From Candidatus Bathyarchaeia archaeon (GTDB lineage Archaea > Thermoproteota > Bathyarchaeia > Bathyarchaeales > Bathycorpusculaceae), in NCBI GenBank assembly GCA_038883795.1, contig JAVZLK010000001.1:192001-256000 (forward strand): 64,000 nt of DNA. The letters run 5' to 3'. The position numbers and the translations under genes are program-made. The notes under the pieces were generated by a model. It was not told the DNA's origin, searched no databases, and saw only the letters and a program-made list of their open reading frames with translations. Of this stretch, positions 46,458-64,000 are shown piece by piece (the first letter of the stretch is position 1; each line of letters starts with the position of its first letter).

Positions 46458-46482
46458 TTTTAAGTGCCTAGATCGCCATGTT

Positions 46483-47529: not shown

Positions 47530-47666
47530 TTCATCCTTTCCATTTTCAGTTTGCAATTATAATTATTAGCAAGGATTTAAGCTGTGCCCATTCCTTAAAT
47601 GTTTTGGAATGGTGAAAAAGTATAAGTGCGGGTATGTTGTTTGTATGCAGAGCTGGTGTGTCTGGA

Positions 47667-47942: not shown

Positions 47943-47958
47943 GAATGGGTGAATATCA

Positions 47959-48156: not shown

Positions 48157-48165
48157 GGGTTTGAG

Positions 48166-48954: not shown

Positions 48955-49139
48955 TGGTTTGGCTTTTGAGGAAATGTGAAAAATGTGGAAGATACACGTT
49001 AAAAAAAGATTCGTGTCCCTATTGTGGTGGAAAGGTTCAGGTACCTCATCCACCGAAGTTTTCACCTGATGATAAATATCTTGTTTATAGGACGGCTTTA
49101 AAAAGGAGGGAAAAAGCTGTTGAAGGAGACGTTCATTAA
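48951..49139 (+). CDS. nop10: H/ACA RNP protein Nop10
   Basis: C..C.RYTLK..CP.CG and HPPKFSPDDKY..YR. Confidence 0.96.
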   Translation: MMVWLLRKCEKCGRYTLKKDSCPYCGGKVQVPHPPKFSPDDKYLVYRTALKRREKAVEGDVH

Positions 49140-49893
49140 GGAACTTGTAAAAGTTGATTTAAACAACCCGGTATTAATCGAGGGGCTTCCAGGCTTGGGG
49201 CTTGTTGGCAAAATTGCCACACGTTATTTAGTTAAAGGGTTGAAGGCTGAAAGGTTCGCTTATCTTTATTCTCCCCATTTTCCATATTTTGTGCTTGTCA
49301 GTAAGAAGGGAAGCGTTAGGCTTTTGCGTGGAACCTTTTACTATTGGAAAAACACAAACGGAAAAAGCGACATTATTTTCTTCACTGGTGATAGCCAAGC
49401 GCAAACGATTGAAGGGCAGTATGAAATTTCTAATAGCATATTGGATTTTGCCATGAAATACAACGTAAAATTGATTGTTACTATTGGGGGTTACCGAATG
49501 GAGGCTAAGGAAAAGCCAAAAGTTGTGACTGCAGCCACAAACATGGGGCTTCTAAATGCTGCCCTAAAAGCTGGTGCTGTTGTTAGTCCTATTGGAAGCC
49601 CTATTGTTGGGACTGCTGGCTTAATCTTGGGTTTAGCCCGTTTCAAAAAAATTGATGCTCTTTGCCTTTTAGGTGAGACCCGTGGATATCTGCCAGATCC
49701 GAAGGCAGCTAAGAGTGTTTTGGAAGTGTTAAAAGTGCTATTAGGCATCGATGTGGATTTAGCGGGTTTGGATGAGGAGATCGCAAAGGCGGAAAGTATG
49801 GTTACGCGGTTGCAGAAAATTGAGGAAAAACGTGTTTTGCAAGCTGAAGAATTAAGGAAGGAGGAAGATAAGAAAATCACTTATATTTCCTAA
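49120..49893 (+). CDS. PAC2-family proteasome assembly chaperone (Nop10-linked)
   Basis: EGLPGLGLVGK and GETRGYLPDPKAA; ends TYIS. Confidence 0.92.
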   Translation: MKETFIKELVKVDLNNPVLIEGLPGLGLVGKIATRYLVKGLKAERFAYLYSPHFPYFVLVSKKGSVRLLRGTFYYWKNTNGKSDIIFFTGDSQAQTIEGQYEISNSILDFAMKYNVKLIVTIGGYRMEAKEKPKVVTAATNMGLLNAALKAGAVVSPIGSPIVGTAGLILGLARFKKIDALCLLGETRGYLPDPKAAKSVLEVLKVLLGIDVDLAGLDEEIAKAESMVTRLQKIEEKRVLQAEELRKEEDKKITYIS

Positions 49894-49897
49894 GGCA

Positions 49898-50989
49898 TTA
49901 AAGGGCTAACTCATTTCGGATTATTTCAACAATTTTTTCTGCTGCTTTTCCATCTCCATAAGGCGATTTTTCTGGCAATTCTTTTCTATTATCCAAAACT
50001 TTATTGATAGCTTTTATTATCCCATGCTTTTCCACACCAGCAACTTCCGCAAAACCAGCTTCCACTGCTTCCGGTCTTTCTGTGGATAGGCGAGTAATCA
50101 AAACTGGTTTTCTAATGCATGGGGCTGTTGCTTCTTCTTGTATTCCGCCCGAATCCGTTACTATGATTTCGCATTTTTTCATTAAGACTAGGAAGTCTAA
50201 ATAGCCCAGCGGTGGCAAAAGTTGTACATTTCTTGAGTTTTTGATTTTGGCATAGATTTTGTTTTGTCTTGTTCTCTTTTTTGTTCTGGGGTGTATTGGA
50301 TAAACGACTGGTAATGGGGCTTCGGCGAAGGCTTCCATGAAATTTTTAAGAACTGCAAAGTTGTCTACGTTTTCTGCTCTGTGGGCTGTGGCTAAAATGA
50401 ATTTTTCAAAGCGAACAATATCCAAAATTTTTGATTTCTTTTCCGCTATTGGCAAATTTTGGATTACGGCGTCTATCACCGTGTTTCCCGTTACATAGAT
50501 TTTCCCCCAAACGCTTTCTCTTTTCAAGTTGTTTTCTGCTGTTTTTGTTGGTGCAAATAAATAGGTGGATATGTGGTCTGTTAGGCGTCGGTTGTGTTCT
50601 TCTGGCATTCGCAAATCGAAACTTCTTAGTCCAGCCTCAACATGCCCCACGGGTATTCCAAGTTTAACAGTCGCCAAAGCGGTTGCTAAAACTCCATTTG
50701 TGTCTCCTTCCACCAAGACAAGGGATGGCGAATTTTTCTTTAACAATTTCTCAATGTGTGTTATTATGACGGCTGTTTGAAGTCCTTGGGAATATGCTCT
50801 AACCTTATATTCATAGTCTGGTTTTGGGAGTTCAAGTTCTTCGATGAATTGTTGGGACATGTTATAACTGTAGTGTTGACCGCAATGGACAAACGTTAGC
50901 GGAATGCCGCTTTTTTGTAAGACTCTAATTATGGGTGCCATCTTTATGATTTCTGGGCGGGTGCCGACAACGACGGTCACTGTTTTCAT
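49898..50989 (-). CDS. wecB: UDP-N-acetylglucosamine 2-epimerase (non-hydrolysing)
   Basis: GTRPEIIKMAP, HVEAGLRS, TDSGGIQEEA and TERPE. Confidence 0.96.
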   Translation of the reverse strand: MKTVTVVVGTRPEIIKMAPIIRVLQKSGIPLTFVHCGQHYSYNMSQQFIEELELPKPDYEYKVRAYSQGLQTAVIITHIEKLLKKNSPSLVLVEGDTNGVLATALATVKLGIPVGHVEAGLRSFDLRMPEEHNRRLTDHISTYLFAPTKTAENNLKRESVWGKIYVTGNTVIDAVIQNLPIAEKKSKILDIVRFEKFILATAHRAENVDNFAVLKNFMEAFAEAPLPVVYPIHPRTKKRTRQNKIYAKIKNSRNVQLLPPLGYLDFLVLMKKCEIIVTDSGGIQEEATAPCIRKPVLITRLSTERPEAVEAGFAEVAGVEKHGIIKAINKVLDNRKELPEKSPYGDGKAAEKIVEIIRNELAL

Positions 50990-51212
50990 TTGTTTTCACG
51001 ATTGCCATTTTAATATGGTACAAGTTTTAACGTTTATTCAAAAATCAAAACTGACCATTAAAACTTAATTCCAATATTTTCAGAAAGTTCAAAGTTTTAA
51101 TCAACCCTTTAAATAATAATCTTTAGATTGCGTTAGTTTCTGTGACATACAAAGCGTCTTACTTTTCCTCTTCAATTATTGTTGTAACAAAATCTATTTG
51201 GTGATAAAGTAT

Positions 51213-51773
51213 ATGCACCTATTAAAGAATGAAAAGGGATTAAGCGTAGTAGTTACGACATTGATAATTCTTGTGGTCTCGGTTCTGCTGGCAACCATTG
51301 TAACTTTTTACGCCATAAACGTAGTAACAACAAGGGTGCAGGAAGAATCATTACACCTTAGTAAACAGCACGTTTGGTATAATACCACTGGTTCATGGGC
51401 TCAAGCAGCTATAGTAATCGTAAACACGGGCGGAAGAGACGTAGTTATCGACAAAATCTCAGTTCGAGGGCAAGAATGTCCATGGAATAATGTTTATTAT
51501 TGGAGAACAAACAACGTGACAGTTTCAAATGACTTGGAGGTAACTTCAACTAATATTACCGGTTTGACTTTTGACATTATGGTGCAGGGTGAAATGCGCA
51601 CTTTTCGGCAAGCTGATGACGATTTGACTTTGAGGTCCGGCTGGACTATAGTTATTTACATTATGAGCCCTGATAGCATATCGGCTAATGATGTTGGCCA
51701 GACTGTGGGCATAACAGTGTTCACTTCAAATGCACAGTATTACAAAGAAGCTAATATTGAAGCAGCGGAATAG
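51213..51773 (+). CDS. Type IV pilin/archaellin-like protein
   Basis: Class III signal peptide KNEKG|LSVVVTTLIILVVSVLLA and NTGGRD; several N-x-S/T sequons. Confidence 0.85.
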   Translation: MHLLKNEKGLSVVVTTLIILVVSVLLATIVTFYAINVVTTRVQEESLHLSKQHVWYNTTGSWAQAAIVIVNTGGRDVVIDKISVRGQECPWNNVYYWRTNNVTVSNDLEVTSTNITGLTFDIMVQGEMRTFRQADDDLTLRSGWTIVIYIMSPDSISANDVGQTVGITVFTSNAQYYKEANIEAAE

Positions 51774-51803
51774 GCAACATTTTTTTCTGTTCACTTTGCA
51801 GCG

Positions 51804-53840
51804 TTAAGTCTTTTTTAGGTAGCCTTCTCTTGGTTCGTATATAGTTCCTTCTCTTAATAGTTGTCCTAAAAGGCGTTCTGCTTCATTTCTTGAAATTTTG
51901 TATTTAGTCTCCAACTCACCCAGAAGCGCTGCTTTTTCTACTATTCCCGTTTCTTTTTCCATTTCAAGCATTGTTGATAGGATTATTTGAAGTTTGTCTC
52001 TTACGCTTTTTGGTTTTCCAGTCATTATGAGGTCTATGTCATACTTGTAGGAGGACAGGTCTATACCAACTTCTTCGAGGGACCGTTTCATAATGTTGAT
52101 GGCTGCTTCTGCATCTTCGGCTAAAACTTCTTTTCTTAAGGCTGCTCTGGCTCTTGCTTCAGCTATGCGCACAAGGGACTCTAGTTGCCGTGCTGTTATC
52201 GCTACTGGAGAGCCTTCTGTTTCGCTTGCTGAGCGCATGGCTAAGTAGAAGTCGTTTAGGCGTTTTAGGGCTTCTTGAGTCAAAACGGGCTTAATCCCTT
52301 TAGCATAGCTTATGTATTTTCGTAATAATTCCAAGGGTATTGGCGGTTCTACGGGAGTTAAACCCTTTCGATGAATTTCAAGGATGTGTTCCGACATTTT
52401 GCTGTCTACCTCTTTGTTTGGCACATCCCTCAAAATGAAGATTAGGTCAAACCTTGAAAGAATAGTGACTGGCAAGGAAATGTTTTCAGCAATGGTGCGG
52501 TGGGGTTCGTATCTTCCCAAGGCTGGGTTGGCTGCTGCGAGGATGGCTGTCCTTGCGTTTAGGGTTGCGACAATTCCTCCTTTTGCAACAGAAACCGTAT
52601 GCTGTTCCATGGCTTCATGGATGGCAACCCTGTCTTCTGGGCGCATTTTATCAATCTCGTCAATGCATGCTATTCCTTTATCAGCTAATACTAGGGCGCC
52701 AGCCTCCAGGCTCATTCCGCCGCCTCTTTCGCGGATGACTGCTGCTGTTAAGCCGGCGGCGGTTGTGCCGCGTCCAGAGGTGTAAAGTCCGCGGGGTGCT
52801 ATTCTGGCCACGTATTGCAATAGCTGAGATTTTGCTGTTCCCGGGTCTCCTACCAAAAGAGTATTTAGCTCTCCCCTAATTGTTATGTCTGGGAGGGTTT
52901 TGGGTACACCTCCGAAGAGGAGGTACATTATGGCTTCTTTTATGTGGTCGTATCCATATATTGATGGTGCTATTGAGTTGATTATTTTGCGGTGTATCCA
53001 TGGGTCTTTTGCCAATTCAAGAATTTTTTCTTCGTCTTCTGGTGATGGGAGAGCGATTTCCGGCTCTTTTCCCAAAACTTCAATCGAGTTGGCATCTAAA
53101 TGTAAAATGAAGGTGCGGAGTTTTCCAACCCGTGGAAGTGTTGGCGAAACAGCGCGGACTATTCCAACTATTGAGACGTGGTCGCCTGGTCTTGCCACAT
53201 CAACTATTTCTCCTCCAACAAGCTTAACATGCAATGTTCTGGGTAACTGTCCCGGCGGCAAATCTTCTGGTCTTTCTTGTAGGCGCAAGTCTTGGGAGTC
53301 TATGAAGGTGGATTCTTCTTGGATGAAATCGAAGGGTCCTTTTGCTCTGCAAGATGGGTTGGCGCAGGCGAAGGGTGCTTTGAGAAATTGTCCTGTTTGG
53401 TTCACTGGGGTTATTTCGCCGCATCGTTTGCATTTAAATGCTGCTTGCATGACCATGGGGCGAACGGGTGTTGAGCGGACAACTATGCCCTCCACCATTA
53501 CAAGTTTTCCAATATGGATTGAGCCAAGTTTTCGTAATGGTGTTGCTTCCCAAAGCCTAACAATTCTCACGTTTACTGTGTCTATTTTTTCTGCATATTC
53601 TGGGTCTTCGCTTTGAAGTTGTGCATAAGCAGCATTGTTGGCGTGGTTTAGGAATTCGTCTGGTTTTTCTAAGAGTCCTTCAGCAAGCTTTTGTTCGAAA
53701 GCCCAAATATCCTCAAAATCAACAATTAAAGAAGTTTTCCCGGCGACTGCCATTTGCGAAATTCTTTGGCGATATTTTTCCGCTTTAAAAAAATCTTGAA
53801 AGAGCGCTTGAGGGTCTAAAGTTTCCAGTTTCTCCGTCAT
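51804..53840 (-). CDS. mcm: Replicative helicase MCM
   Basis: GDPGTAKSQ, IDEIDKM and SRFD arginine finger. No intein. Confidence 0.98.
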   Translation of the reverse strand: MTEKLETLDPQALFQDFFKAEKYRQRISQMAVAGKTSLIVDFEDIWAFEQKLAEGLLEKPDEFLNHANNAAYAQLQSEDPEYAEKIDTVNVRIVRLWEATPLRKLGSIHIGKLVMVEGIVVRSTPVRPMVMQAAFKCKRCGEITPVNQTGQFLKAPFACANPSCRAKGPFDFIQEESTFIDSQDLRLQERPEDLPPGQLPRTLHVKLVGGEIVDVARPGDHVSIVGIVRAVSPTLPRVGKLRTFILHLDANSIEVLGKEPEIALPSPEDEEKILELAKDPWIHRKIINSIAPSIYGYDHIKEAIMYLLFGGVPKTLPDITIRGELNTLLVGDPGTAKSQLLQYVARIAPRGLYTSGRGTTAAGLTAAVIRERGGGMSLEAGALVLADKGIACIDEIDKMRPEDRVAIHEAMEQHTVSVAKGGIVATLNARTAILAAANPALGRYEPHRTIAENISLPVTILSRFDLIFILRDVPNKEVDSKMSEHILEIHRKGLTPVEPPIPLELLRKYISYAKGIKPVLTQEALKRLNDFYLAMRSASETEGSPVAITARQLESLVRIAEARARAALRKEVLAEDAEAAINIMKRSLEEVGIDLSSYKYDIDLIMTGKPKSVRDKLQIILSTMLEMEKETGIVEKAALLGELETKYKISRNEAERLLGQLLREGTIYEPREGYLKKT

Positions 53841-54406
53841 TCTCTCACTTTCTCATAATTCATTATTTGTTTTCTCCATTTTTGAATAAGACTGTAAAGT
53901 TGGTCATAGAGAATTCTCTCTTCAACGGTCAAGTTTTTTAATGTTTGTTCAACTTGAGCTGGAGCCGAGGCAAGGGAAACTATTTTCTTCAACCTTGCAT
54001 TTAACACGTCCTGGGTTAAATGTTTAATTTTTTCGTATTCCCGTATCTTTTCCGGATTTTTCGAGGCTTCCTCCTTAAGTTCGGTGAGGTATCTGCGAAG
54101 TTTTGGGTAAAAGTTTTCTGGCAGTTTTGGTATTTGTCCGGCCGTTTGCACTCTTTCAGTCCACTGAATTTTGTAAAGTTTTGTGGCGTCTAAACGCTCA
54201 TCTTCTCTAAACCGCGCTATCCCAGCTTTAACCAGCTCTTGAGCTATCCAAAATTGAACCTCATATTCATTTCCTTCCTCAAAGGGACCAACATTTAATC
54301 CTGCAAGCTTGATTTCGGGGCAGTTTCTGTTGGCAATAATTTTTGCTAGTGTATGTTCAAAGATGAAATCTAAATTTTTAATGTGTGTTGGTGTTGTTTT
54401 TGGCAT
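53837..54406 (-). CDS. GINS subunit Gins23
   Basis: N-terminal B domain (GPF..G....V.FW.A..L) followed by the helical domain (LPENFY, RLKKI, NLTVEE); overlaps the mcm start. Confidence 0.88.
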   Translation of the reverse strand: MPKTTPTHIKNLDFIFEHTLAKIIANRNCPEIKLAGLNVGPFEEGNEYEVQFWIAQELVKAGIARFREDERLDATKLYKIQWTERVQTAGQIPKLPENFYPKLRRYLTELKEEASKNPEKIREYEKIKHLTQDVLNARLKKIVSLASAPAQVEQTLKNLTVEERILYDQLYSLIQKWRKQIMNYEKVRE

Positions 54407-54526
54407 CCTTTCGTCCCCCTCTTGAGACTTTAAACTTTTCTAACCTAAAGTGGATATAAGGGCGATAGTTTAAAAACTTAGATTAAAAAGTTTAAGAAAA
54501 TTCCAAAAGTTGATGCCAAAATTTTG

Positions 54527-55774
54527 TTAAGGCCACAAACCCAACGTTTTTATTGCTTCAGCTACTCTTCCAACTCCAAGCATTAGGGCTGCTGTTCGCA
54601 TGTCGCACTTTTCCTTTTTCATTAAATTGTAAACGTCGTTGAAAGCTCTAACCATCTTATTTTCCAGTTTTCGATTCACTTCTTCTAATGTCCAGTGTTC
54701 GCGTGTTAGGTTTTGAACCCATTCATAATAGCTTGCTGTTACGCCGCCCGAGTTAGCCAATATGTCTGGAACAAGCATTATTCCTTTCTCGTTAAGAATT
54801 TTGTCTGCTTCTGGGGTTGTTGGGCCGTTGGCGCCTTCCGCCACAATTTTTGCGCTTATCTTGTCCGCATTGGCTTTTGTTATCTGGTTTTCCAAGGCAG
54901 CTGGTATAAGTATGTCGCATTCTGTTTCAAGAAGCTCCTCGTTTGTTATGTTTTTGCATCCCTTATAGTTGATCACGGAGCCTGTTTTTGATTTATGTTC
55001 ATAAACATAATAGGGGTTCAATCCTTCTTTGCAATAAATCCCTCCTACGGAATCGCTTACTGCCACAACTTTACAACCCATGTCATAAGCTATTTTAGCA
55101 GCATTCCACCCAACATTCCCGTAACCTTGAACAGCAACGGTTGCTCCTTTAAACTTTAAACCTGCAACCTTTGCGGCTTCCCTTGCACAAACAACCACGC
55201 CTAAGGATGTGGCTTCGGCTCTTCCTTCTGAACCGCCTACGCTTATTGGTTTTCCAGTGACGCATTCTGGGACGCTGTAGCCTTTGAATTGGCTGTAGGT
55301 GTCCATTATCCAAGCCATGGTTTGAGCATCTGTATATACGTCTGGTGCTGGCACGTCGCGGTATGGTCCGATAACGTCTAATATTAGGCTTGTGTAGCGT
55401 CTTGTGAGGCGTTCAATCTCGCTTATACTCATTTTTTTAGGGTTGCAGCATACTCCGCCTTTTGCACCTCCATAGGGTATGTCCACAACAGCACATTTCC
55501 AAGTCATCCACATCGCCAAAGCAGTAACTTCATCTAATGTGACGTTTGGGTGGTAGCGTATTCCGCCCTTGAATGGTCCCCTTGCATCGTTATGTTGAAC
55601 GCGGCAACCAGTGAAAGTACCAATTTCTCCGTTATCCATCTTTATTGTAACGGAAACGATGAGCGACCGTTTGGGATGTTTTAACATTTCATGGATCCCA
55701 GGGTCAAGATTTAATTTTTCAGCAGCTATCCTCAACTGTTCTAATGCCGTGTCTAAGGCTGACTGTTCCTTCAT
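54527..55774 (-). CDS. gdhA: Glutamate dehydrogenase (GDH1, standard length)
   Basis: KGGIRYH, MTWKCA, GGAKGG, DVPAPD, GYGNVG and EGANGPT. Confidence 0.96.
   Translation of the reverse strand: MKEQSALDTALEQLRIAAEKLNLDPGIHEMLKHPKRSLIVSVTIKMDNGEIGTFTGCRVQHNDARGPFKGGIRYHPNVTLDEVTALAMWMTWKCAVVDIPYGGAKGGVCCNPKKMSISEIERLTRRYTSLILDVIGPYRDVPAPDVYTDAQTMAWIMDTYSQFKGYSVPECVTGKPISVGGSEGRAEATSLGVVVCAREAAKVAGLKFKGATVAVQGYGNVGWNAAKIAYDMGCKVVAVSDSVGGIYCKEGLNPYYVYEHKSKTGSVINYKGCKNITNEELLETECDILIPAALENQITKANADKISAKIVAEGANGPTTPEADKILNEKGIMLVPDILANSGGVTASYYEWVQNLTREHWTLEEVNRKLENKMVRAFNDVYNLMKKEKCDMRTAALMLGVGRVAEAIKTLGLWP
54803..54886 (-). repeat. 84-bp tract shared with gdh2 (inverted repeat, copy 1)
   Basis: The reverse complement matches 59895-59978 at 82 of 84 nt. 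Confidence 0.92.
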
Positions 55775-55812
55775 AAAAACCACTCTTCTTTTCACTTATT
55801 GTTTGAAGCGTA

Positions 55813-55826
55813 TTTTAAACTTTTAA
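55813..55826 (-). promoter_or_regulatory. BRE/TATA promoter of gdh1
   Basis: TTAAAAG-TTTAAAA on the minus strand about 40 nt upstream of ATG 55774. No TGTACA box in this intergenic region. Confidence 0.55.
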
Positions 55827-55860
55827 GTGTGAGGAGTTTGGCTTGGGGCTTGTAAAATTT

Positions 55861-55875
55861 AGAAAAAGAGAGAGG
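55861..55875 (-). terminator. Pyrimidine-rich terminator after the glutamate synthase-domain gene
   Basis: CCTCTCTCTTTTTCT on the minus strand right after the stop codon. Confidence 0.5.
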
Positions 55876-55878
55876 ATG

Positions 55879-57486
55879 TTAGTCTAGGATTTTTTCGATT
55901 GCGTCTTTTTCTGCTTCGTGAGGCATTGGTATACCAGTAACTTTTGCGGCTGTTTCGCTTAAGCTCATCAAATCATTTCTGTTGATGAGCTCCAGTTTCC
56001 ATTTTCTGTTGCCTGCAAGAAGTTGTTTTAGTCCGACGCCTATGCGGTCTGTTAGGTATGTGTATAAGGCTACGGCTTCCCATGGTATCTCTTTGAAGCG
56101 TTCTCCATATTTTGCTTGCAATTCTGGAGCTGCGATGAAGAATTTTTCTGGGGTGTTGCCGTATCTGTCTGCGAAGGCTTTTGGCAGTTTGCCCTCTTGG
56201 GCTAGTTGTTTGAAGTAGCTTGCTTTCATAACAGCTGTTAATGGTGAGCGTCCCATCAAAACTGCTTTTACAAAGGGGCCGTCTCCAAAGTTGCTCATGG
56301 CTATTGCTTTGAAAATTTGGGTTTCGTTTATGAAGCCCCCAGCCATTATCAAATCCGGCACATATCGCCCCTTTTTCTTCAATATTTGGGCGCATCTAAG
56401 AACTATGGCTTCTAGGTAAACTGTTGGGATGCTCATTTCATCCATCATTGGAACTGGACTCATACCAGTTCCGCCCCCTGCTCCGTCAAAGTATACTGCG
56501 TCGATTTTTGCTTCCGAAGCTATTTTTAATGTGTATGCAACTGCTGAGGGTCTGTATGCGCCAGTTTTTAATGTGACGTGTTTTGCTCCTTGTTTGCGGA
56601 GCCATTCTATGTCTTCTATCATGTTCCTTTCTTTTGGTATGCCAACTCTGCTGTGCCTTTCGAAGGATTTGAAGACGCCTTCTTTGAAGGCTTGCTGGAC
56701 TGTGGGGTCTTCTGGGTCTGGAATTACTATGTAGCCTCTTTTCTTCAGCATTATGGCTTTCTCTAAGTCTCTAACGCGGACTTCGCCTCCAATGGCTTTT
56801 GCGCCTTGTCCCCATTTTCTTTCTATTATGTTTACTTCCAATTTTGATATGGCATACACATCAACGCCTAGTCTTTGGTCTTCAACATTTGTTTGTACGG
56901 CTATGTCACCGTATTTTCCGTCCCAGAACTTTCGGAACAAGTCTACTCTGCGTTTTAACTCTTTTGAGTATGTTACTTTGCCCTTTGTGATTTGGGCTTC
57001 TGGATCCATGCCGCAAACGTTTTCTCCTACAACTATTATGGCTCCTGAAAGGGCTGAGCCTATTGCTAAGTCTTCCCAGTTTAGTCTTGCAACGTCTGTT
57101 GAGCCAAATGCGCCATTGATTACTGGAACTTTGAGGGGTATTCCAGCAACTTTTGTTTCTATGCTAACATTTGGAAATAGAGCGACATCCGGGTTTTCCT
57201 CGATTCCTAAAGCTTCGAATAAGCCTGCTTGAATGTTAAAGTGGGACCAATCTAATCCAAAATCTTTGAGGGCTCCTGCAGTGCTGTATCCGAATTGGAC
57301 TGGTTCGGGGTATAGGGCTTCTCTTCCTCTGAAGGCTGATAAGCTTATTTCGCACATTATTGGGCAGTCGCGGATGCATATGGGGCACATTCCACTGGTT
57401 GGGCTTGTGTCTTTAACGCGGGTCATTGTCCCTGTTGTTGATTTTCCGTTTAAGTATGAACTATTTCTTTGAACACGTTCCGTCAT
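55879..57486 (-). CDS. FMN-binding glutamate synthase family protein (stand-alone GltB FMN domain)
   Basis: KWGQGAKAIGGE, LKTGAY, DGAGGGTGMSP, AGG and MGR; N-terminal cysteine cluster CPICIRDCPIMC. Confidence 0.93.
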   Translation of the reverse strand: MTERVQRNSSYLNGKSTTGTMTRVKDTSPTSGMCPICIRDCPIMCEISLSAFRGREALYPEPVQFGYSTAGALKDFGLDWSHFNIQAGLFEALGIEENPDVALFPNVSIETKVAGIPLKVPVINGAFGSTDVARLNWEDLAIGSALSGAIIVVGENVCGMDPEAQITKGKVTYSKELKRRVDLFRKFWDGKYGDIAVQTNVEDQRLGVDVYAISKLEVNIIERKWGQGAKAIGGEVRVRDLEKAIMLKKRGYIVIPDPEDPTVQQAFKEGVFKSFERHSRVGIPKERNMIEDIEWLRKQGAKHVTLKTGAYRPSAVAYTLKIASEAKIDAVYFDGAGGGTGMSPVPMMDEMSIPTVYLEAIVLRCAQILKKKGRYVPDLIMAGGFINETQIFKAIAMSNFGDGPFVKAVLMGRSPLTAVMKASYFKQLAQEGKLPKAFADRYGNTPEKFFIAAPELQAKYGERFKEIPWEAVALYTYLTDRIGVGLKQLLAGNRKWKLELINRNDLMSLSETAAKVTGIPMPHEAEKDAIEKILD

Positions 57487-57538
57487 TTTCAGTTCACCTT
57501 TACATTTGCAAACTTTTAGATATGATGGGTAATTTGCG

Positions 57539-57590
57539 TGCGCATTTAAACGTTACTTTAAAAGAATGCTGAATTGAACATTTGTGTACA
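57539..57590 (-). promoter_or_regulatory. Promoter of the glutamate synthase-domain gene with three TGTACA-like boxes
   Basis: TGTACA 57585-90, TGAACA 57575-80 (10-bp period) and TGCGCA 57539-44, which abuts TATA TTTAAA 57545-50. Confidence 0.7.
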
Positions 57591-57608
57591 AAGTCTAGAA
57601 CATAGCTT

Positions 57609-58352
57609 TTAAGGGATTTCTATCTGCAACCCATCAACTATATATTCACGCCTTTGGTAAGTTTGTGGGCTGTACCTTCCGCCAGCCTTCTTAATTTTTA
57701 AGAAGTTCTTATCATCCTGTCTGGAAAGGTCTATAACCACTTGTGTCATGTGTTCGATTATGGCGCAAAACTCCTTTGGGTGAGCGTTTTTCGCCATTGT
57801 CCAATAGGCGAGGGTCTGGTAGGCGTACAAAGCGGGGCAAACATGCCCAAAGAAGGCTTTAACAGCGTCTCTCCCCCAATTATGCTCCATAATGGAGAGG
57901 CTGTTAAAAACAAATCTTGTTCCCGGAGTTACAAATTCTCTTTCAATTCTTCCGAAGAAGTGGTGGAAACGTTCGGGATCTTTCGAGCTTGGAACCTTTC
58001 TAATCCATGGTGGAGCCTTATCATAAAAGTCGCTGAATATAAGTTCTCCTTGTCCAGCGGCCTCTGAGAAGCAATCTAGAACCAACAGTTTCTTTTCCCA
58101 TCCTTCGGGCAGCACTTTGGTTAATGGTGCAAGCTGGAGCATTAATGCTTGAGGAGGATATATAAAATCTAAATAAATGACTTGCTTTCCTTCCAGCAAG
58201 CCTTGTCGCATAAACGAGTAGAGGAATTCTCTTGCAAAGGTTCCGGATTCAACTTCCCACAGCACATTTTCTCCAAGTAACAACCCACCGCCTAAAAGTT
58301 GGTCTAGGCTTTTTGTTCCCGTCGAGTGAAACGCTGGCTTTTCATTTTGCAA
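57609..58352 (-). CDS. KaiC/RAD55-like RecA-fold protein with inactivated Walker motifs
   Basis: STGTKSLDQLLGGG N-terminus; Walker A position reads EVESGTFAREF and Walker B position reads FVFNSL. Confidence 0.85.
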   Translation of the reverse strand: MQNEKPAFHSTGTKSLDQLLGGGLLLGENVLWEVESGTFAREFLYSFMRQGLLEGKQVIYLDFIYPPQALMLQLAPLTKVLPEGWEKKLLVLDCFSEAAGQGELIFSDFYDKAPPWIRKVPSSKDPERFHHFFGRIEREFVTPGTRFVFNSLSIMEHNWGRDAVKAFFGHVCPALYAYQTLAYWTMAKNAHPKEFCAIIEHMTQVVIDLSRQDDKNFLKIKKAGGRYSPQTYQRREYIVDGLQIEIP

Positions 58353-58427
58353 TAGAGCTGCACCACGTTTATGGTTCGTAGGCGGTGTTAAAAATGTTAT
58401 GTTGGGTTTTGAGACGTTTTATTGGTT

Positions 58428-58473
58428 TGTACACGAGTGTACATAATGCACACAACCTTTCTATATTTGAACA
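58428..58473. promoter_or_regulatory. Divergent promoter (pseudo-ATPase / gdh2) with four TGTACA-like boxes
   Basis: Perfect palindrome TGTACAC-GA-GTGTACA 58428-43, TGCACA 58447-52, and TGAACA 58468-73 directly after TATA-like TTTCTATATT. Confidence 0.78.
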
Positions 58474-58508
58474 TAGGTCTTTTTACTCTTCGGAAGGAAG
58501 TGATAAAA

Positions 58509-60284
58509 ATGTTGAACTCTGTGGAATTATCCGCACGAGAATTGGGAATGATGAAGCTTATGGTAGATTTTTTCGCTGAAAAACCAGAGCTAACAGCAAA
58601 AATAGAAAGTTACACCACAGCCCATTATGCCCTCTTAACAACATACTCTGAAAACTTTGGCATACCAATAGAAGACGCTCTAAAAGTCTTCGAAGAACTT
58701 CAAAGAAAACTAACGGAAGCAGAATACGTTCACGTAAAGGCACCAGAACCAATAAAGAAACTTTTGCCCCTAACCAGAGAAGAACTTAACATGCTCCGGG
58801 TCTTGGTTGATTATTTCGCTGAAAATCCGAAAATGGCTCCTGCCGGCTCATTCCTATCAAAAAAGGAAGATGCTTTGGCTGAGGCATACCTATGGTTTTA
58901 TGGAAACAGCGAAGGCAACGGCGAAGTAGCAAGAGAAACGTTAAGAAATTTGGTTGAGAAGCTTCAAACAGCAGTTTACATAAAGGTCGACACATTGGCT
59001 CCCGTGGCTGTCACGCCAAACCCTTACGAAGCCGCCCTTAAACAGCTGGATTTAGCCGCCGAGAAACTAAAACTCGACCCTGGAATTCACGAAATATTAA
59101 AGCGTCCCATGCGCACACTCATCGTTAATATTCCAGTAGTTATGGATGACGGCAGCATCCAAGTTTTCACTGGCTACCGAGTCCAATACAACGACGCCTT
59201 AGGCCCAACAAAGGGCGGAATACGTTACCATCCAGATCTTACGCTGGATGAAGTGACAGCCCTAGCTGCTTGGATGACATGGAAAACCGCTGTAACTGGA
59301 CTACCCCTCGGCGGAGGTAAGGGCGGCATCCGATGCAATCCCAAAGAGATGTCAAAGGCTGAACTTGAACGTCTGACAAGAGGATACGTACGGGCTATAG
59401 CAAAATTCATAGGGCCGTTCACTGATGTGCCAGCGCCTGACGTTTACACGACAGCGGAAATGATGGCTTGGATAATGGATGAATACAGCGAAATAGTTGG
59501 CTACCCAGTTTTCGGGGTTGTAACAGGCAAACCCATCAACGTTGGCGGCTCGCGTGGAAGAGGCGAAGCAACCTCAAGGGGTTTAATGTACACAGTTATT
59601 GAAGCAGCTAAACATTTGGGCATAAACCTAAAAGGTGCAACCGTGGCAGTGCAAGGCTATGGAAATGTTGGCTATCACGTAGCACGATTATTACATGAAA
59701 TTGGTTGCAAAATCATTGCAGTTTCAGATTCTAAAGGCGGTGCCTACAATCCAGAGGGTTTAAACCCGGAAAAAGTATTAGCCCACAAAGACAGGACAGG
59801 TTCTGTAGTTGACTACCCAGGTAGCACCTTCATAACAAATGAGCAATTGTTAGAGTTAGAATGTGACATTCTGGTTCCAGCAGCTTTGGAGAATCAGATA
59901 ACAAAGGCCAATGCGGACAAGATAAGCGCAAAAATTGTGGCGGAAGGTGCCAACGGCCCAACAACCCCAGAAGCAGACGAAATCCTATTCAAAAAAGGAG
60001 TCTTCGTTATTCCAGACATTCTCGCTAATTCTGGAGGCGTTATTGTCAGCTACTTTGAGCAAGTACAGAACCAGATGAACTATTATTGGACAGAAGAGGA
60101 AGTGCGAAACAAACTGAAAGAAACAATAACGAAGGCTTTCCACGACGTTCTAAACATGGCAAAACAGCATAACGTGAACATGCGCACTGCAGCCTACATG
60201 CTCGCTGTTAAAAGAGTGGCAGATGCTTTATTGGCACGTAAAGGAACCGCCTTCTCTTTAGAATCTCCATTAGCGCCTCGTTAA
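58509..60284 (+). CDS. gdhA: Glutamate dehydrogenase (GDH2) with ~170-aa N-terminal tandem-repeat extension
   Basis: Complete GDH core (KGGIRYH, MTWKTA, GGGKGG, DVPAPD, GYGNVG, SDSKG) preceded by two ~81-aa repeats. ATG 58509 follows the RBS GGAAGTGA. Confidence 0.93.
   Translation: MLNSVELSARELGMMKLMVDFFAEKPELTAKIESYTTAHYALLTTYSENFGIPIEDALKVFEELQRKLTEAEYVHVKAPEPIKKLLPLTREELNMLRVLVDYFAENPKMAPAGSFLSKKEDALAEAYLWFYGNSEGNGEVARETLRNLVEKLQTAVYIKVDTLAPVAVTPNPYEAALKQLDLAAEKLKLDPGIHEILKRPMRTLIVNIPVVMDDGSIQVFTGYRVQYNDALGPTKGGIRYHPDLTLDEVTALAAWMTWKTAVTGLPLGGGKGGIRCNPKEMSKAELERLTRGYVRAIAKFIGPFTDVPAPDVYTTAEMMAWIMDEYSEIVGYPVFGVVTGKPINVGGSRGRGEATSRGLMYTVIEAAKHLGINLKGATVAVQGYGNVGYHVARLLHEIGCKIIAVSDSKGGAYNPEGLNPEKVLAHKDRTGSVVDYPGSTFITNEQLLELECDILVPAALENQITKANADKISAKIVAEGANGPTTPEADEILFKKGVFVIPDILANSGGVIVSYFEQVQNQMNYYWTEEEVRNKLKETITKAFHDVLNMAKQHNVNMRTAAYMLAVKRVADALLARKGTAFSLESPLAPR
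59895..59978 (+). repeat. 84-bp tract shared with gdh1 (inverted repeat, copy 2)
   Basis: CAGATAACAAAGGCC...GAAGCAGAC; 82 of 84 nt identical to the reverse complement of 54803-54886. Confidence 0.92.
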
Positions 60285-60304
60285 TTTCCCCCTTTTTCTA
60301 TTTT
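60285..60304 (+). terminator. Pyrimidine/T-rich terminator after gdh2
   Basis: TTTCCCCCTTTTTCTATTTT immediately after the stop codon. Confidence 0.55.
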
Positions 60305-60307
60305 ATG

Positions 60308-60341
60308 TGTACATTTTTTGATTTTTATGAACATATTTAAA
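60308..60341 (+). promoter_or_regulatory. Promoter of the RHH regulator with two TGTACA-like boxes
   Basis: TGTACA 60308-13 and TGAACA 60328-33 (20-bp period). The second box sits at the BRE position just before TATA ATTTAAA 60335-41. Confidence 0.7.
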
Positions 60342-60376
60342 AGCAACCGTTAAAAAGAATAAACACGGGAAATGGG

Positions 60377-62329
60377 ATGTCAGTTCATCTTCATACAACC
60401 ATAACAAGAAAAACAAATGAAATCCTTGAAGAGTTAGCAAAAACCTACGGTACAAAAAGTCGTGTTCTCGAAAAAGCTGTAGAAACCTTGCTAAGAGTAG
60501 ATAAGGTTGGTTCTTGTGATGACTGCGTTATAAAAGCGAAGGTTCACGAGCAAACCAAGTTAAGAGAAGCCCTTGACCTCACATCGATTGGAAGGAGAAG
60601 CCTTGATGGACTTTTGGAAGTTGCCATCGGCAATAAAACAGTTGAAGATTTGGTTAGGGAACAAAAAGAAGAGGCAAAAAACGTTATTGAAATTCTTAAA
60701 AGCTCAGTTGCATGGAAAACTCCTTCAAACTTTAAAGAATTCCTCTTAGTTTTAGAGGAGATTAAGGGGCTCACAAACCTTTTTGATATTCCCTCCTACA
60801 GCGAAATTGACAACATGGCAGTTTTAAGACCTAAAGTCTTTAAACGCTTACCAGTTTTAGTTGCTTTTCAAATCGCCACAATCCTTGAAGGTATTGGAGT
60901 TTGCTTCGACCTTCGCGTAATGGGTGAAGATATTGCCATTAAAATGATTCGCCCCGAAGTCTATCCTCTAAAAAGGAAAGAATTTGGCGATTTTCTAAAT
61001 CAACAGATTGAAAAAGAATTAATGAACGTAACTCCGGGTTTGTTCAAAAACACTTTGATGCTTGTGGGACCAGCCTTTATGAGTTGGGCAGAAAAGCATC
61101 TGGAAGAACCTATCACGGATTTGGGGAACTTTATAGAAGATGCGAGAACCGTTCTTGGCGTTAGCGAGTTTCCAAGAGAACCAAAAGATTTCGTGAAAGC
61201 CATTCTTTCAGCCTTTGTCAAAATGAACTGGTTCAAGCAAGCAAAAATTTTGGCTGAAAAGAAAGAAAACACCTTGGAACTGGTCTTTCAAGTTACCGCA
61301 GCTCCACTAGCCAAATTGTCCGTAACCGTTCTTTCTGTTATGTTAGCAACTCGCGGATGGAAACTTCTGAACTATTCCATTGAACACACAACCGTAAACA
61401 TGGCAATCCAATTTGTAGGCGCAGAGGACCAAAGCCTCCTCGACCAACTAGCTGAATTAAGCCTCTTCCAAATAATAGGAAAACAATTTTTAGATGTAGT
61501 TCCAGTTCCTCGAGACCTCTTCAACTCCTTTGCATCAAGAGTCTATGAAAGCGATAGGCAAAAATTTGAGGAAATATACCGCGCAACCGGAGTCCGCATT
61601 TCAAATGCTATCCGTATGCTTGCAAGGAATGATGCGGAGAAAATTAACAGACTCTCTAAAAACTTTATTCTCAAGAATATTGGTGTGACCCAGCCAGATG
61701 CGGAGGTAAGGTTTGTTGATGATGAGCACTTCACTATCATATTCAAGCGTATTGACCCCCTCGTAATGAATAGTCAGCGGGTCTTGATAGAATCCATGTT
61801 TAGGGAGTTAGGCTACGAAATTACAACCACAACTTTTCAAAACCTTCTTAGTTTTAAGTTGAAACTTTTGGAAAAACCCATTTTGGAACCACTGCCGCGG
61901 AAAAAGTTGATGCAAACCCTTATTGAAGGCATGTCCTGCAACTCTGTGGAAGAAGCTTTCGCCATTGAAAAAGAACAATTGGACGAATTATTCCCCGAAG
62001 ATTATCCATGGACAATAAGGGATGTTGGCGAAAGGCTCATGAGCATGTATAGGGAACTGGGCATAGAGGTTGAAATAGAATATTTTGAAGGTGGCTTCAC
62101 CCTCAAATATAAGAGTTGCCCATATTACAAGCTAGTTAAGACCAACCAGAAGACATGGCTCTGCAGTCTCCGCAAAAAAACACTAGAATACGTCATTTCT
62201 AGGGTCAGCCACGGCAAGAAAGGAAAAATCAAAATCATAAAATCGCTTCTTCAGAATGAACACCCATGCGAATACGCCATATTTCTAACGGGCTTTCTTG
62301 AAAAGGAGGAAGAAAAAGCCAGCGAGTAA
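60377..62329 (+). CDS. Putative transcription regulator: N-terminal ribbon-helix-helix plus tandem V4R/MetOD1-like ligand-binding domains
   Basis: VHLHTTI (beta)-RKTNEILEELAKTYG-TKSRVLEKAVETLL; CDDC; C-terminal CPYY...C...CEY. Confidence 0.7.
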   Translation: MSVHLHTTITRKTNEILEELAKTYGTKSRVLEKAVETLLRVDKVGSCDDCVIKAKVHEQTKLREALDLTSIGRRSLDGLLEVAIGNKTVEDLVREQKEEAKNVIEILKSSVAWKTPSNFKEFLLVLEEIKGLTNLFDIPSYSEIDNMAVLRPKVFKRLPVLVAFQIATILEGIGVCFDLRVMGEDIAIKMIRPEVYPLKRKEFGDFLNQQIEKELMNVTPGLFKNTLMLVGPAFMSWAEKHLEEPITDLGNFIEDARTVLGVSEFPREPKDFVKAILSAFVKMNWFKQAKILAEKKENTLELVFQVTAAPLAKLSVTVLSVMLATRGWKLLNYSIEHTTVNMAIQFVGAEDQSLLDQLAELSLFQIIGKQFLDVVPVPRDLFNSFASRVYESDRQKFEEIYRATGVRISNAIRMLARNDAEKINRLSKNFILKNIGVTQPDAEVRFVDDEHFTIIFKRIDPLVMNSQRVLIESMFRELGYEITTTTFQNLLSFKLKLLEKPILEPLPRKKLMQTLIEGMSCNSVEEAFAIEKEQLDELFPEDYPWTIRDVGERLMSMYRELGIEVEIEYFEGGFTLKYKSCPYYKLVKTNQKTWLCSLRKKTLEYVISRVSHGKKGKIKIIKSLLQNEHPCEYAIFLTGFLEKEEEKASE

Positions 62330-62389
62330 AGTTAAATGAAGTCTTAGTAAGTATTAATTACTGATACTATAATATGGAAGCTGTGAGGG

Positions 62390-63367
62390 TTGCCTTTGAG
62401 TTTTGAGATGTGGGCTGAAAAATATCGACCAAAAACATTAGATGCCATGGTCAACCAAAAAGAAATAGTTGAACGCCTAAAAAGCTTCGTAAAATCAAGA
62501 AATGTGCCCCACTGCATCTTTGCCGGACCACCGGGAACTGGGAAAACCACGGCTGCCCTTTGTTTGGCGAGAGACCTTTACGGTGACGCCTATAGAGAGC
62601 ATATTATGGAGTTAAACGCCAGTGATGAACGAGGTATTGATGTTGTTCGTGAAACTGTGAAAACTTTTGCCAGGGTTAGGTCTATTGGCGAGATTCCCTT
62701 TAAAATAATGATTTTGGACGAGGCTGACAACATGACTTCTGATGCGCAGCAAGCATTAAGGAGGACTATGGAGCGTTATACAGAAACTTGCCGTTTCATT
62801 CTCTGTGCCAATTATAGTGGGAAAATAATAGAGCCAATCCAATCCAGATGTGCACCGTTTCGTTTCACTTTTCTACCCAGAGAAGAACAAGACAAATATT
62901 TGAAGCACATAGCAGAAAAAGAAGGCGTAAAACTGCTAAAAGACGGGTTAGAAGCAATTTTTGAAGTCTGCGGCGGAGACCTCAGAAAAGCAATCAACAC
63001 GCTACAAGCAGCAGCATCGCTAAACAAGCCAGTAGACGCAAAAGTTGTTTACTCAATTGCTGGAAGAGCCAATCCCGCAGATGTACAGAAAATGATCGAA
63101 ACCGCCATGAAAGGAGATTTCTTAGAAGCGAGAAAACAGTTGCGTGATATGATTCAAAAGTATGGAGTGGCTGGAAGCGACATAATCCGACAAATTCACA
63201 CTGAAATCTTTCGGGGAGACATTCCAGAAGAATGGAAAATAAAATTGGCCGACATCGTTGGCGAAATAGATTATAGGCTTGTTGAAGGTGCCGATGAGGA
63301 GGTTCAATTAAGCGCTTTATTGGCAAGACTAGTTGAGGCTGGGCATGAATTAAGAAGGGCAAGTTAG
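62390..63367 (+). CDS. rfcS: Replication factor C small subunit
   Basis: WAEKYRP, GPPGTGKT, ELNASDERG, DEAD and SRC. No intein. Confidence 0.98.
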   Translation: MPLSFEMWAEKYRPKTLDAMVNQKEIVERLKSFVKSRNVPHCIFAGPPGTGKTTAALCLARDLYGDAYREHIMELNASDERGIDVVRETVKTFARVRSIGEIPFKIMILDEADNMTSDAQQALRRTMERYTETCRFILCANYSGKIIEPIQSRCAPFRFTFLPREEQDKYLKHIAEKEGVKLLKDGLEAIFEVCGGDLRKAINTLQAAASLNKPVDAKVVYSIAGRANPADVQKMIETAMKGDFLEARKQLRDMIQKYGVAGSDIIRQIHTEIFRGDIPEEWKIKLADIVGEIDYRLVEGADEEVQLSALLARLVEAGHELRRAS

Positions 63368-63372
63368 GTGTA

Positions 63373-64000
63373 ATGGGCTTGTATGCTGCTTGGACTGTAA
63401 AGCATAAACCGAAATCCTTGGCAGAAGTTGTGGGGAACAAGGAAGCAATCCAAAAATTCACTGAGTGGATTAAATCTTGGGAAAGGGGGGTTCCAAAAAA
63501 GAGAGCCGTCTTTCTCTACGGACCACCAGGCATTGGAAAAACCGTGTCCGTAGAGGCTTTGGCTAACGATTTAAAGATGGAGCTTGTGGAAAAGAATGCA
63601 AGCGATTATAGGACAGAAGAGGCTGTAAAGCATTTTGCTGGTTTGGCTTCCCAGTATGGTTCCTTATTTGGTGGTCGGAGAATTGTTTTGCTTGATGAGT
63701 TGGATGGTTTGACGGGAACAGCCGACAAAGGAGGAGTTAAAGCAATAACTGACGTGATAAAATCCGCTCAATGCCCAATAGTTTTGATTGCAAACAACGC
63801 CTATGACCCGCGATTCACAGAACTACGTAACTACTGCCTTTTAATTGAGTTTAAGAAACCGCCAGCTGGCGAGGTTATGAAACATCTTAAGCGGATATGC
63901 GAAAGGGAAGGAATTCAAGCTGAAGAAAGTGCGCTTAAATTCATTGCTCAGCGTTCAGATGGTGATGTTCGCTCGGCGGTGAATGACCTTCAAGCTTTGG
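63373..64000 (+). CDS. rfcL: Replication factor C large subunit (3'-partial; absent from the ORF track)
   Basis: Translated by hand: MGLYAAWTVKHKPKSLAEVVGN...YGPPGIGKT...EKNASDYR...LDELDG. Runs off the window end. Confidence 0.96.
   Translation, partial: MGLYAAWTVKHKPKSLAEVVGNKEAIQKFTEWIKSWERGVPKKRAVFLYGPPGIGKTVSVEALANDLKMELVEKNASDYRTEEAVKHFAGLASQYGSLFGGRRIVLLDELDGLTGTADKGGVKAITDVIKSAQCPIVLIANNAYDPRFTELRNYCLLIEFKKPPAGEVMKHLKRICEREGIQAEESALKFIAQRSDGDVRSAVNDLQAL

Follow-up and report, generated by a model that had tools for sequence, protein, structure and literature searches.

A three-gene module of a KaiC-like protein, a fused glutamate dehydrogenase and a putative RHH/V4R regulator shared by Bathyarchaeia and Asgard archaea

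Glutamate dehydrogenase (GDH) is a meeting point of carbon and nitrogen metabolism. A GDH core with extra regulatory protein mass is found in GdhA/GdhB of Thermus thermophilus and in the 180-kDa large GDHs. To our knowledge, almost nothing is known about GDH regulation in uncultured Bathyarchaeia and Asgard archaea. Among the closest described systems is that of Bacillus subtilis, in which the GDHs inhibit GltC and so shut off gltAB, according to the available part of PMC6794564. In the available part of PMC5847659, 'iKaiC' is named as a domain of archaeal signalling proteins (citing Makarova et al. 2017), and MetOD1 is presented as a relative of V4R and HNOB that has three conserved Cys. The locus described here lies in a window of 64,000 nucleotides (positions 192,001 to 256,000 of contig JAVZLK010000001.1, GenBank assembly GCA_038883795.1) from a Candidatus Bathyarchaeia archaeon. 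The assembly under study (G000) is 2.18 Mb in size and 87% complete. The locus encodes two GDHs (GDH1 and GDH2), a 535-residue predicted FMN enzyme, a 247-residue KaiC-like protein and a 650-residue putative regulator with predicted ribbon-helix-helix (RHH) and V4R-like domains.

The genes for the KaiC-like protein, the fused GDH2 and the 650-residue RHH/V4R protein are the core unit of this locus and have the same arrangement in Bathyarchaeia and Asgard archaea. GDH1 and the FMN enzyme are widespread genes outside the core unit. The favoured reading, with a probability of about one half, is a conserved, self-contained and autoregulated three-gene module in which the 650-residue protein would bind TGWWCA boxes, and which in Bathyarchaeia stands beside two ordinary enzyme genes. 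The original prediction, made from the sequence of the window, had placed five genes around a divergent promoter between GINS23 and rfcS, and the five open reading frames (ORFs) were confirmed there, between GINS23 (53837-54406, minus strand) and the RFC small subunit (62390-63367, plus strand). It had also proposed a dedicated regulon; operator-like boxes specific to the locus in G000 and in the related genome G012 speak for this part, but the unit that co-occurs has three genes and not five. The features are as follows, with coordinates as positions in the window.

54527-55795, minus strand: GDH1, with both ELFV Pfam domains; the probable start is the ATG at 55774.
55879-57486, minus strand: 535-residue protein, predicted FMN-binding TIM barrel, with Glu_synthase as its sole Pfam match.
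57575-57590: TGWWCA pair 5' of the FMN-enzyme gene (TGAACA at 57575 and TGTACA at 57585, 10 bp apart).
57609-58352, minus strand: KaiC/RecA-fold protein without P-loop ('iKaiC'), 247 residues, divergent from GDH2.
58422-60284, plus strand: GDH2 ORF as listed, with a TTG start.
58428-58473: operator-like array of TGWWCA boxes between the divergent KaiC-like and GDH2 genes (motif read).
58509-59024, plus strand: orphan N-terminal extension of GDH2, two tandem repeats of ~85 residues.
59025-60284, plus strand: catalytic core of GDH2 (ELFV_dehydrog, E 9.1e-86).
60308-60333: box pair 5' of the 650-residue gene (TGTACA at 60308 and TGAACA at 60328, 20 bp apart).
60377-62329, plus strand: 650-residue putative regulator, with a sub-threshold match to RHH_3 (residues 6-40) and a C-terminal one to MetOD1.

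A scan with the alignment of the 650-residue protein, with one genome per species and 185,579 species, yielded 75 loci; the locus counts use only loci with enough sequence upstream. The GDH2 core is directly upstream of the 650-residue gene in 64/64 testable loci. The N-terminal extension of GDH2 is present in 57/57 loci (Asgard 7/7, Bathyarchaeia 50/50) and the divergent KaiC-like gene in 54/54 (Asgard 7/7, Bathyarchaeia 47/47). The FMN enzyme is found in 38/50 loci (Asgard 0/7, Bathyarchaeia 38/43) and a GDH1-type gene in 33/50 (Asgard 0/7, Bathyarchaeia 33/43). The gene-neighbourhood survey that had been put forward as a check therefore has a divided outcome: KaiC-like gene, GDH2 and 650-residue gene are always together, in two phyla, whereas GDH1 and the FMN enzyme are absent from all seven Asgard loci. 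Ten of the 75 loci are from Asgard archaea (Promethearchaeota, Hermodarchaeota and Thorarchaeota); nine of these contain nearly the whole 650-residue protein at 50-53% identity, and the tenth is a contig-end fragment (59%, residues 351-641). The Asgard flanks differ: a PyrK-like flavoprotein is encoded at one end, a Pat-like acyl-CoA-synthetase/GNAT protein and a pyrophosphatase at the other. Of 61 relatives, 16 have the KaiC-like gene, and 15 of these 16, and no others, have the 650-residue gene complete or nearly so; the extra KaiC-like match (G004) is partial, covering residues 89-247. GDH1-type genes occur in 51 of the 61 relatives, many of them without the module. Matches to the FMN enzyme (E ≤ 1e-5) occur in 87 of 201 genomes of the phylum, again many without the module, and among the matches listed are near-full-length orthologs (63-95% identity) from ~40 genomes. 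The three core genes very probably work together.

The Asgard loci have two further neighbours. A Pat-like protein of ~940-970 residues, with CoA-binding, ATP-grasp_5 and GNAT domains, is encoded directly after the 650-residue gene (L121:8922-11846, L136:9060-11873 and L119:9032-11857), and in L121 the two genes overlap by 11 nucleotides. The PyrK-like FAD/NAD/Fe-S protein adjoins the KaiC-like gene. Both are possible further partners of the module, for example in protein acetylation.

TGTACA-like boxes had been noted at the promoters of four genes and not at gdh1. The TGWWCA sites are real and their positions are conserved in orthologous loci; the promoter region read upstream of GDH1 contains no TGWWCA. 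The sites are at 57575/57585, 58428/58438/58468 and 60308/60328, with spacings that are all multiples of 10 bp. TGTACA shows no overall enrichment in the window (12 copies versus 9.8 expected), and 4 of the 12 copies sit in three short intergenic regions of the locus. The array between the KaiC-like and GDH2 genes reads, in order, TGTACA (58428), TGTACA (58438), a degenerate TGCACA (58448), a TATA-like TTTCTATATTT and TGAACA (58468). In front of the 650-residue gene the second box (60328) abuts a TATA-like ATTTAAAAG. We infer the TATA-like assignments at both promoters from the sequence. RHH dimers bind in arrays, and short repeated boxes on one face of the helix fit that. Two pairs of TGWWCA at 10-bp spacing are present in the 2.18-Mb assembly, both at this locus, and the corresponding pairs in G012 (98% complete) are also two, both at the module. 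Within 160 nucleotides upstream of GDH2, 56/57 loci have two or more boxes at 9-11 bp from each other. In both phyla, 2-3 boxes one helical turn apart are followed by a TATA-like element and then by another box. In the promoter of the 650-residue gene the boxes lie upstream of the TATA-like element or flank it; in the Asgard loci they flank it. The layout before this gene appears to be that expected for autoregulation. The box architecture is kept between the phyla at ~50% protein identity, and since genes and candidate operator are both conserved from Bathyarchaeia to Asgard archaea, the module is more than a quirk of one lineage. Paired boxes are present upstream of the FMN-enzyme gene in 40/41 module loci versus 0/25 loci without the module nearby. 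This restriction of the boxes at the FMN promoter to loci with the module is the strongest argument that a module-encoded factor is what the boxes serve; it also suggests that in Bathyarchaeia a resident neighbour was drawn into the regulon of the module. The TGWWCA arrays are quite likely the operator of such a factor.

The candidate for this factor is the 650-residue protein. It matches no family at threshold, and the matches listed (120 of 488) are all unnamed or 'hypothetical'. A search of 1.84 billion representatives with the 650-residue query gave 43 clusters at E ≤ 1e-3, of which a single one is full length; PDB sequence searches gave nothing useful for the protein or for the profile of alignment A4. 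RHH_3 scores 13.7 bits against a cut-off of 21.6 (E 0.063) and is in register over 35/44 positions; a distant relative matches ParD/RHH at E 0.049. The AlphaFold model has a mean confidence (pLDDT, predicted local distance difference test) of 61.7, and below 60 in the C-terminal domain. When the model was compared with known structures by VIA-align, residues 2-42 superposed on the PutA RHH-operator DNA complex with Z 6.1 and a root-mean-square deviation (rmsd) of 1.4 Å over 41/44 residues, and the RHH segment on the RHH antitoxins VapB12 (Z 5.7, rmsd 1.5) and CopA_SO (Z 5.6, rmsd 1.9). Residues 554-635 match MetOD1 with 19.8 bits (cut-off 23.8, E 9e-4), and a precomputed PF18546 match exists for 3 of the 120 homologs listed. 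C581, C596, C631 and H629 are invariant in 13 sequences of the C-terminal domain (alignment A1), and the three Cys match the three-Cys signature of MetOD1/V4R as given in the available part of PMC5847659. Residues 367-507 are matched to the phenol-sensing domains of DmpR (Z 8.6) and PoxR (Z 8.1); mostly the same residues also align with Bet3/TRAPP (Z 7.2-7.8), H-NOX (Z 6.2) and the V4R protein MJ1460 (Z 6.0), and residues 70-191 align with an Asgard TRAPPC3 (Z 7.4). Foldseek gives TRAPP a probability of 0.99 but an E-value of 0.035-0.05. Distant relatives of ~500 residues are without the C-terminal domain. In three relatives the N-terminal ~190 residues are joined to a response-regulator receiver domain, which places the N-terminal part among signal-transduction proteins. 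Taken from sequence and model, the protein is likely to bind DNA through an RHH and to carry several V4R-like sensor domains.

Directly after the RHH segment the protein has an invariant GSCDDC motif (G-S-C-(D/E)-D-C; residues 45-50, window 60509-60526). Several distant relatives share the motif, and the receiver-fused ones have lost it. The two CxxC motifs of an RHH dimer could together make up a four-Cys site for metal binding or redox.

In the favoured reading the 650-residue protein would bind the boxes via its RHH segment, with dimers stacked on one face of the DNA, and the odds lean towards this protein, the RHH/V4R protein, as the box-binding factor. Its targets would be the three core genes, its own included, and in Bathyarchaeia the FMN enzyme as well; this scope of autoregulation and control is slightly favoured. 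A small-molecule signal would be bound by the V4R-like domains, and metal possibly at the invariant Cys sites. As protein partners, the KaiC-like protein and the GDH2 extension would feed the glutamate/2-oxoglutarate state into the regulator, and GDH1 would be a clustered bystander. Contact of the KaiC-like protein and/or the GDH2 extension with the regulator or with each other is a tentative proposal, and rather doubtful.

Several observations weigh against this reading. The genome-wide counts of box pairs equal those of a reversed-pattern control, so the specificity lies in the location of the pairs and not in their number. Further pairs, 3-5 per genome, are found outside the module in G025 and in three Asgard genomes (G251, G252 and G253); those in G025 are well formed (TGTACA-N4-TGTACA; C1:512562 and C2:529477), and the extra pairs could be additional regulon members or chance. 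The compared genomes are related, and the counts are therefore not independent trials and overstate the support. For the regulator itself, the RHH assignment combines sub-threshold sequence scores with a model region of which residues 1-8 and 37-72 have pLDDT < 50, and the hhalign comparison of alignment A4 with Escherichia coli NikR is in register at a probability of 0.8%, which is not significant. The V4R-like Z-scores of 6-8.6 are within the range that, per the tool, is often reached by unrelated models. Moreover, the V4R domains of characterised regulators sense aromatic compounds and not glutamate or 2-oxoglutarate. The catabolic role considered below is likewise derived from genes not found in an assembly that is 87% complete.

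The second core protein, of 247 residues, matches PAXNEB (Elp4, RecA fold) at E 3.1e-10 (40.1 bits, cut-off 28). Its scores for KaiC PF06745 (E 3.3e-3, 17.3 bits versus 26.6) and KaiC_arch_3 (23.9 versus 249) are below the cut-offs, and among PDB sequences RadB is matched at E 1.1e-4. The Walker A motif is defined as GxxxxGK[ST]. At this position the protein reads ESGTF, with no Lys, in 11/11 aligned Bathyarchaeia orthologs (two with a one-position substitution), and five further translations read ETGTF (four Asgard) or ESGTF (one Bathyarchaeia). The loss of the P-loop in all of these sequences supports the earlier description of the protein as a dead KaiC-like ATPase. Between Bathyarchaeia and Asgard archaea the protein keeps 65% identity, which indicates strong purifying selection. 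In G002 the gene (C20:19736-20572) has an insertion of ~33 residues, and in G073 (L033 3245-3719) the match is split into three pieces that overlap, which points to a frameshift or an error of assembly.

All orthologs keep the ATG at 58509 as the start of GDH2, and not the TTG of the listed ORF. The extra domain that had been seen on this enzyme is real: the N-terminal extension of ~172 residues contains two repeats (repeat 1 versus repeat 2, hhalign probability 97.8%, E 7e-13) and is kept in 12/12 aligned orthologs. It has no usable Atlas match, and Pfam up to E 10 gave weak and inconsistent matches only. A word-index search with the extension returned 12 proteins of 95-305 residues, all apparently broken pieces of fusions; none of the three that were inspected is a convincing free-standing protein. 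Among the proteins returned, P0298 looks chimeric, with an ANTAR part following the homologous one, and P0292 departs from the fusion at the point where the GDH core is expected to start. By these searches the extension is without a detectable relative outside the fusions, and two of the three core proteins carry regions to which no family could be assigned by sequence. A complex prediction for the KaiC-like protein and the GDH2 extension scored 0.00, which speaks neither for nor against binding. If GDH2 were an archaeal 'trigger enzyme', its extension would dock onto the KaiC-like protein and/or the RHH/V4R regulator, the KaiC-like protein being presumed to form rings like other KaiC/RecA-fold proteins, and the catalytic or ligand state of GDH2 (glutamate/2-oxoglutarate/NAD(P)H) would be relayed directly to transcription of the module. 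In Bathyarchaeia the transcription target would include the FMN/Fe-S enzyme as a ferredoxin-type, glutamate-synthase-like enzyme. Such a relay, drawn by analogy with RocG-GltC of B. subtilis, is unlikely.

The 535-residue protein matches Pfam Glu_synthase (PF01645) at E 5.9e-10 (39.3 bits, cut-off 20.4) over residues 283-397, and the match spans profile positions 185-296, or 112/369. It has no NCBIfam match and no useful PDB sequence match. Its model (predicted template-modelling score, pTM, 0.76; pLDDT 67.9) has an FMN-binding TIM-barrel fold as predicted, and the top Foldseek rows are FMN-dependent mandelate dehydrogenase, glycolate oxidase and lactate oxidase at E 1e-9, not GltB. By BLASTP, residues 324-406, with the segment DGAGGGTGMSP (DGxGGTGxSP), match E. 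coli GltB 1014-1098 at E 0.004; with the sequences read directly, a QGAK motif is located ~110 residues upstream of the segment, and QGAKPGEGG in GltB ~90 residues upstream. An N-terminal CxxCxxxCxxxC motif (C34, C37, C41 and C45) is invariant in 28 sequences and probably holds an Fe-S cluster. A relative with 33% identity matches both Glu_synthase and FMN_dh. Distant orthologs have unrelated neighbouring genes that offer no clue to the substrate, and nothing on a stand-alone family of this enzyme was found in the literature searched, a limited collection without supplements. A Pfam scan of the protein detected neither a GATase_2 (glutaminase) nor a GXGXG domain. In G000, at 87% completeness, neither PF00310 (GATase_2; the control search matched 13/14 genomes) nor PF01493 (GXGXG; control 14/14) was found. 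The claim that three enzymes of the locus act on the 2-oxoglutarate/glutamate couple is not supported: by its score the protein is a distant member of the Glu_synthase family and not a demonstrated glutamate synthase. In most Bathyarchaeia loci the leader just 5' of its start codon contains a conserved GTTTGCAAATGTAAAGGTGA element (window 57495-57525), which exceeds the length required for a Shine-Dalgarno site.

The absence of PII and NrpR had been stated for the window and extends to the whole assembly: PF00543 (PII), PF01995 (NrpR) and PF00909 (Amt) were not found in G000 at its 87% completeness. Two glutamine synthetase-like genes are present, one of them ~22 kb past the end of the window on the same contig. 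The missing PII, NrpR, Amt and glutamate synthase (GOGAT) parts would fit an organism that takes its nitrogen from amino acids. Because these genes and the parts of a glutamine-dependent GOGAT were not found, the role proposed here is that of an extra, inducible GDH in amino-acid or peptide catabolism; on this gene content, catabolic GDH control appears the likeliest role and is rated above a classical nitrogen-assimilation switch. In such a switch the regulator would choose by nitrogen status between assimilation (the FMN 'GOGAT' with one GDH) and catabolism (the other GDH). The GltB-type motifs kept by the FMN enzyme (DGxGGTGxSP, and QGAK at comparable spacing), the module's boxes at its promoter, the two glutamine synthetase-like genes and the precedent of GltC inhibition by the B. 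subtilis GDHs (available part of PMC6794564) speak for it. The missing glutaminase, GXGXG, PII, NrpR and Amt genes speak against it, as does the absence of the FMN enzyme near the module in 7/7 Asgard and 5/43 Bathyarchaeia loci, and GDH1, the supposed alternative route, has no box. The switch is distinctly unlikely. This strain and related ones occur in runs labelled hot-springs metagenome; a search of sequencing runs listed none of RNA that contains them, and two runs labelled metatranscriptomic are probably DNA.

Both GDHs belong to the ELFV dehydrogenases above the Pfam thresholds, GDH1 with ELFV_dehydrog at E 1.9e-84 (283.6 bits) and ELFV_dehydrog_N at E 3.8e-57 (192 bits), and GDH2 with 287.9 and 195.9 bits. 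The NCBIfam family GdhA_Arch is by far the best family for both, with 577 bits for GDH1 and 641.9 bits for GDH2; as these scores are below the equivalog cut-off of 750 bits, the substrate specificity of the two enzymes rests on similarity only. They are 63-64% identical to each other and are the only two GDH genes in G000. A tree of GDH cores, computed without an outgroup from 27 selected rows of the 75 loci (14 Bathyarchaeia GDH2, 7 Asgard GDH2 and 6 GDH1), separates GDH1 from the fused GDH2 with 100/100 support. This split is the sole claim drawn from the unrooted tree, in which the Asgard GDH2 form one group (100/100) and the Bathyarchaeia GDH2 another (89/86). By its sequence GDH1 appears to be an ordinary glutamate dehydrogenase that is clustered with the module in most Bathyarchaeia. 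A gene-conversion tract of ~30-40 codons is shared by GDH1 (54741-54950, minus strand; residues ~295-335) and GDH2 (59831-60040, plus strand), with 96% nucleotide and 87% third-position identity compared with ~40% third-position identity elsewhere. In G004, GDH1 (C50:20848-22104) has several in-frame stops.

A different substrate was also considered. GDH2 of altered specificity and the FMN enzyme, by 2-hydroxy/2-oxo-acid chemistry, would then break down a compound, hydrophobic or aromatic, that the V4R-like domains detect. The phenol-binding V4R sensors DmpR and PoxR are the best natural (non-designed) fold matches of the regulator, for the FMN enzyme Foldseek ranks alpha-hydroxy-acid oxidases and dehydrogenases first and not GltB, its distant relative matches Glu_synthase as well as FMN_dh, GDH2 is below the GdhA_Arch cut-off (642 versus 750 bits), and a 2-hydroxyacid dehydrogenase is encoded near the module in Asgard loci. 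However, archaeal GdhA is the best NCBIfam family of GDH2 at E 5e-193, and the nearest non-GDH family, Trp dehydrogenase, reaches only E 2e-26; the identity with GDH1 and the shared conversion tract point the same way, and in Asgard archaea the FMN enzyme is outside the module. This alternative is improbable.

GDH2 itself might bind the boxes through its N-terminal repeats, as PutA, likewise an enzyme, does through a DNA-binding domain of its own, with the 650-residue protein as sensor or scaffold. A tandem pair of repeats would suit boxes in tandem at a distance of one helical turn, and the boxes are accompanied by the extension no less strictly than by the 650-residue protein. The extensions of single orthologs match DNA-binding families weakly (GeBP-like DNA-binding domain at E 0.0015, GerE at E 0.14), but different orthologs match different families and none is at threshold. 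The extension is acidic (isoelectric point 5.0), whereas the RHH segment is basic (9.3), and it is the 650-residue protein that has a fold match to RHH-DNA complexes. Binding by GDH2 is highly improbable.

At positions 44673-64000 of the window, the module lies inside an island of replication genes, namely those for the primase small subunit, MCM, GINS23 and the two RFC subunits (small and large). That the adjacency is inherited synteny without any functional link has a very slight chance: the location in a conserved island (MCM-GINS ... RFCS-RFCL), the FMN enzyme alone beside RFCS, with no GDH1 adjoining, in 3/3 same-family genomes without the module (G201, where it also adjoins GINS and so stands between GINS and RFCS, G118 and G034), and the lack of a box at GDH1 are in its favour, but the same core arrangement is found in another phylum with unrelated flanks, survives flank rearrangements and is accompanied by boxes that co-vary with the module, and these three points exclude this reading for the three-gene core.

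A cluster of enzymes with its own regulator and operator is of an ordinary kind; the parts and their combination are undescribed in the literature searched. In that limited collection, without supplements, nothing was found on KaiC-like proteins together with glutamate dehydrogenase in archaea or on an N-terminal extension of glutamate dehydrogenase in Asgard archaea, and nothing relevant on glutamate dehydrogenase or glutamate synthase of Bathyarchaeia. The locus provides a candidate regulator-operator pair, consisting of a defined 6-bp palindrome in phased arrays and one predicted DNA-binding protein, and two unannotated families, the 650-residue RHH/V4R protein and the N-terminal repeat domain of GDH. 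It also offers a concrete job for a 'dead' KaiC-like protein. The module is small and self-contained and its sequence is kept in both phyla, so that it could be rebuilt in vitro without growing the organisms. A docking or signalling function of the GDH extension, if confirmed, would bring archaea into the concept of trigger enzymes. In the trigger-enzyme reading given above, the module would be a three-protein signalling device without a described counterpart, common to Bathyarchaeia and Asgard archaea.

Compared with known systems, the locus shares with T. thermophilus GdhA/GdhB the presence of two paralogous GDH genes in one locus. Unlike the extra mass of GdhA/GdhB and of the large GDHs, the extension of GDH2 has no detectable relative outside the fusions; the one related structural result, a Foldseek row for 7jsr at a probability of 0.30, is no evidence for the comparison with these GDHs. 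Like PutA, the regulator has an N-terminus of 42 residues that superposes on the PutA RHH-operator complex (rmsd 1.4 Å), but unlike RHH repressors such as NikR, CopG, MetJ and the antitoxins it is ten times the typical size and has a CxxC directly after the RHH. Its residues 367-507 have fold matches to DmpR (Z 8.6) and PoxR (Z 8.1) among the V4R sensors of the XylR/DmpR/PoxR type. Those proteins combine one V4R domain with an AAA+ sigma-54 activator and a helix-turn-helix (HTH), whereas the 650-residue protein has a predicted RHH, several alpha-beta domains and no ATPase. It is like archaeal MetOD1/V4R proteins in its sub-threshold C-terminal MetOD1 match and three invariant Cys (PMC5847659, available part). 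The KaiC-like protein is like iKaiC in being a single KaiC/RecA-fold domain without the Walker A lysine, and unlike it in that its gene stands by itself and is linked to those of a GDH fusion and an RHH/V4R protein. The whole is like the RocG/GudB-GltC-gltAB system of B. subtilis, seen through the available part of its source, in that a GDH, a transcription factor and a glutamate-synthase-family gene as target promoter, here a predicted one, come together. It differs in that GltC is of the LysR type and the candidate regulator here is of the RHH type with V4R-like domains, and in that the predicted target enzyme belongs only distantly to the Glu_synthase family and is not part of the module in Asgard archaea. 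It differs further in a GDH with an orphan domain and in an obligatory gene for a KaiC-like pseudo-ATPase.

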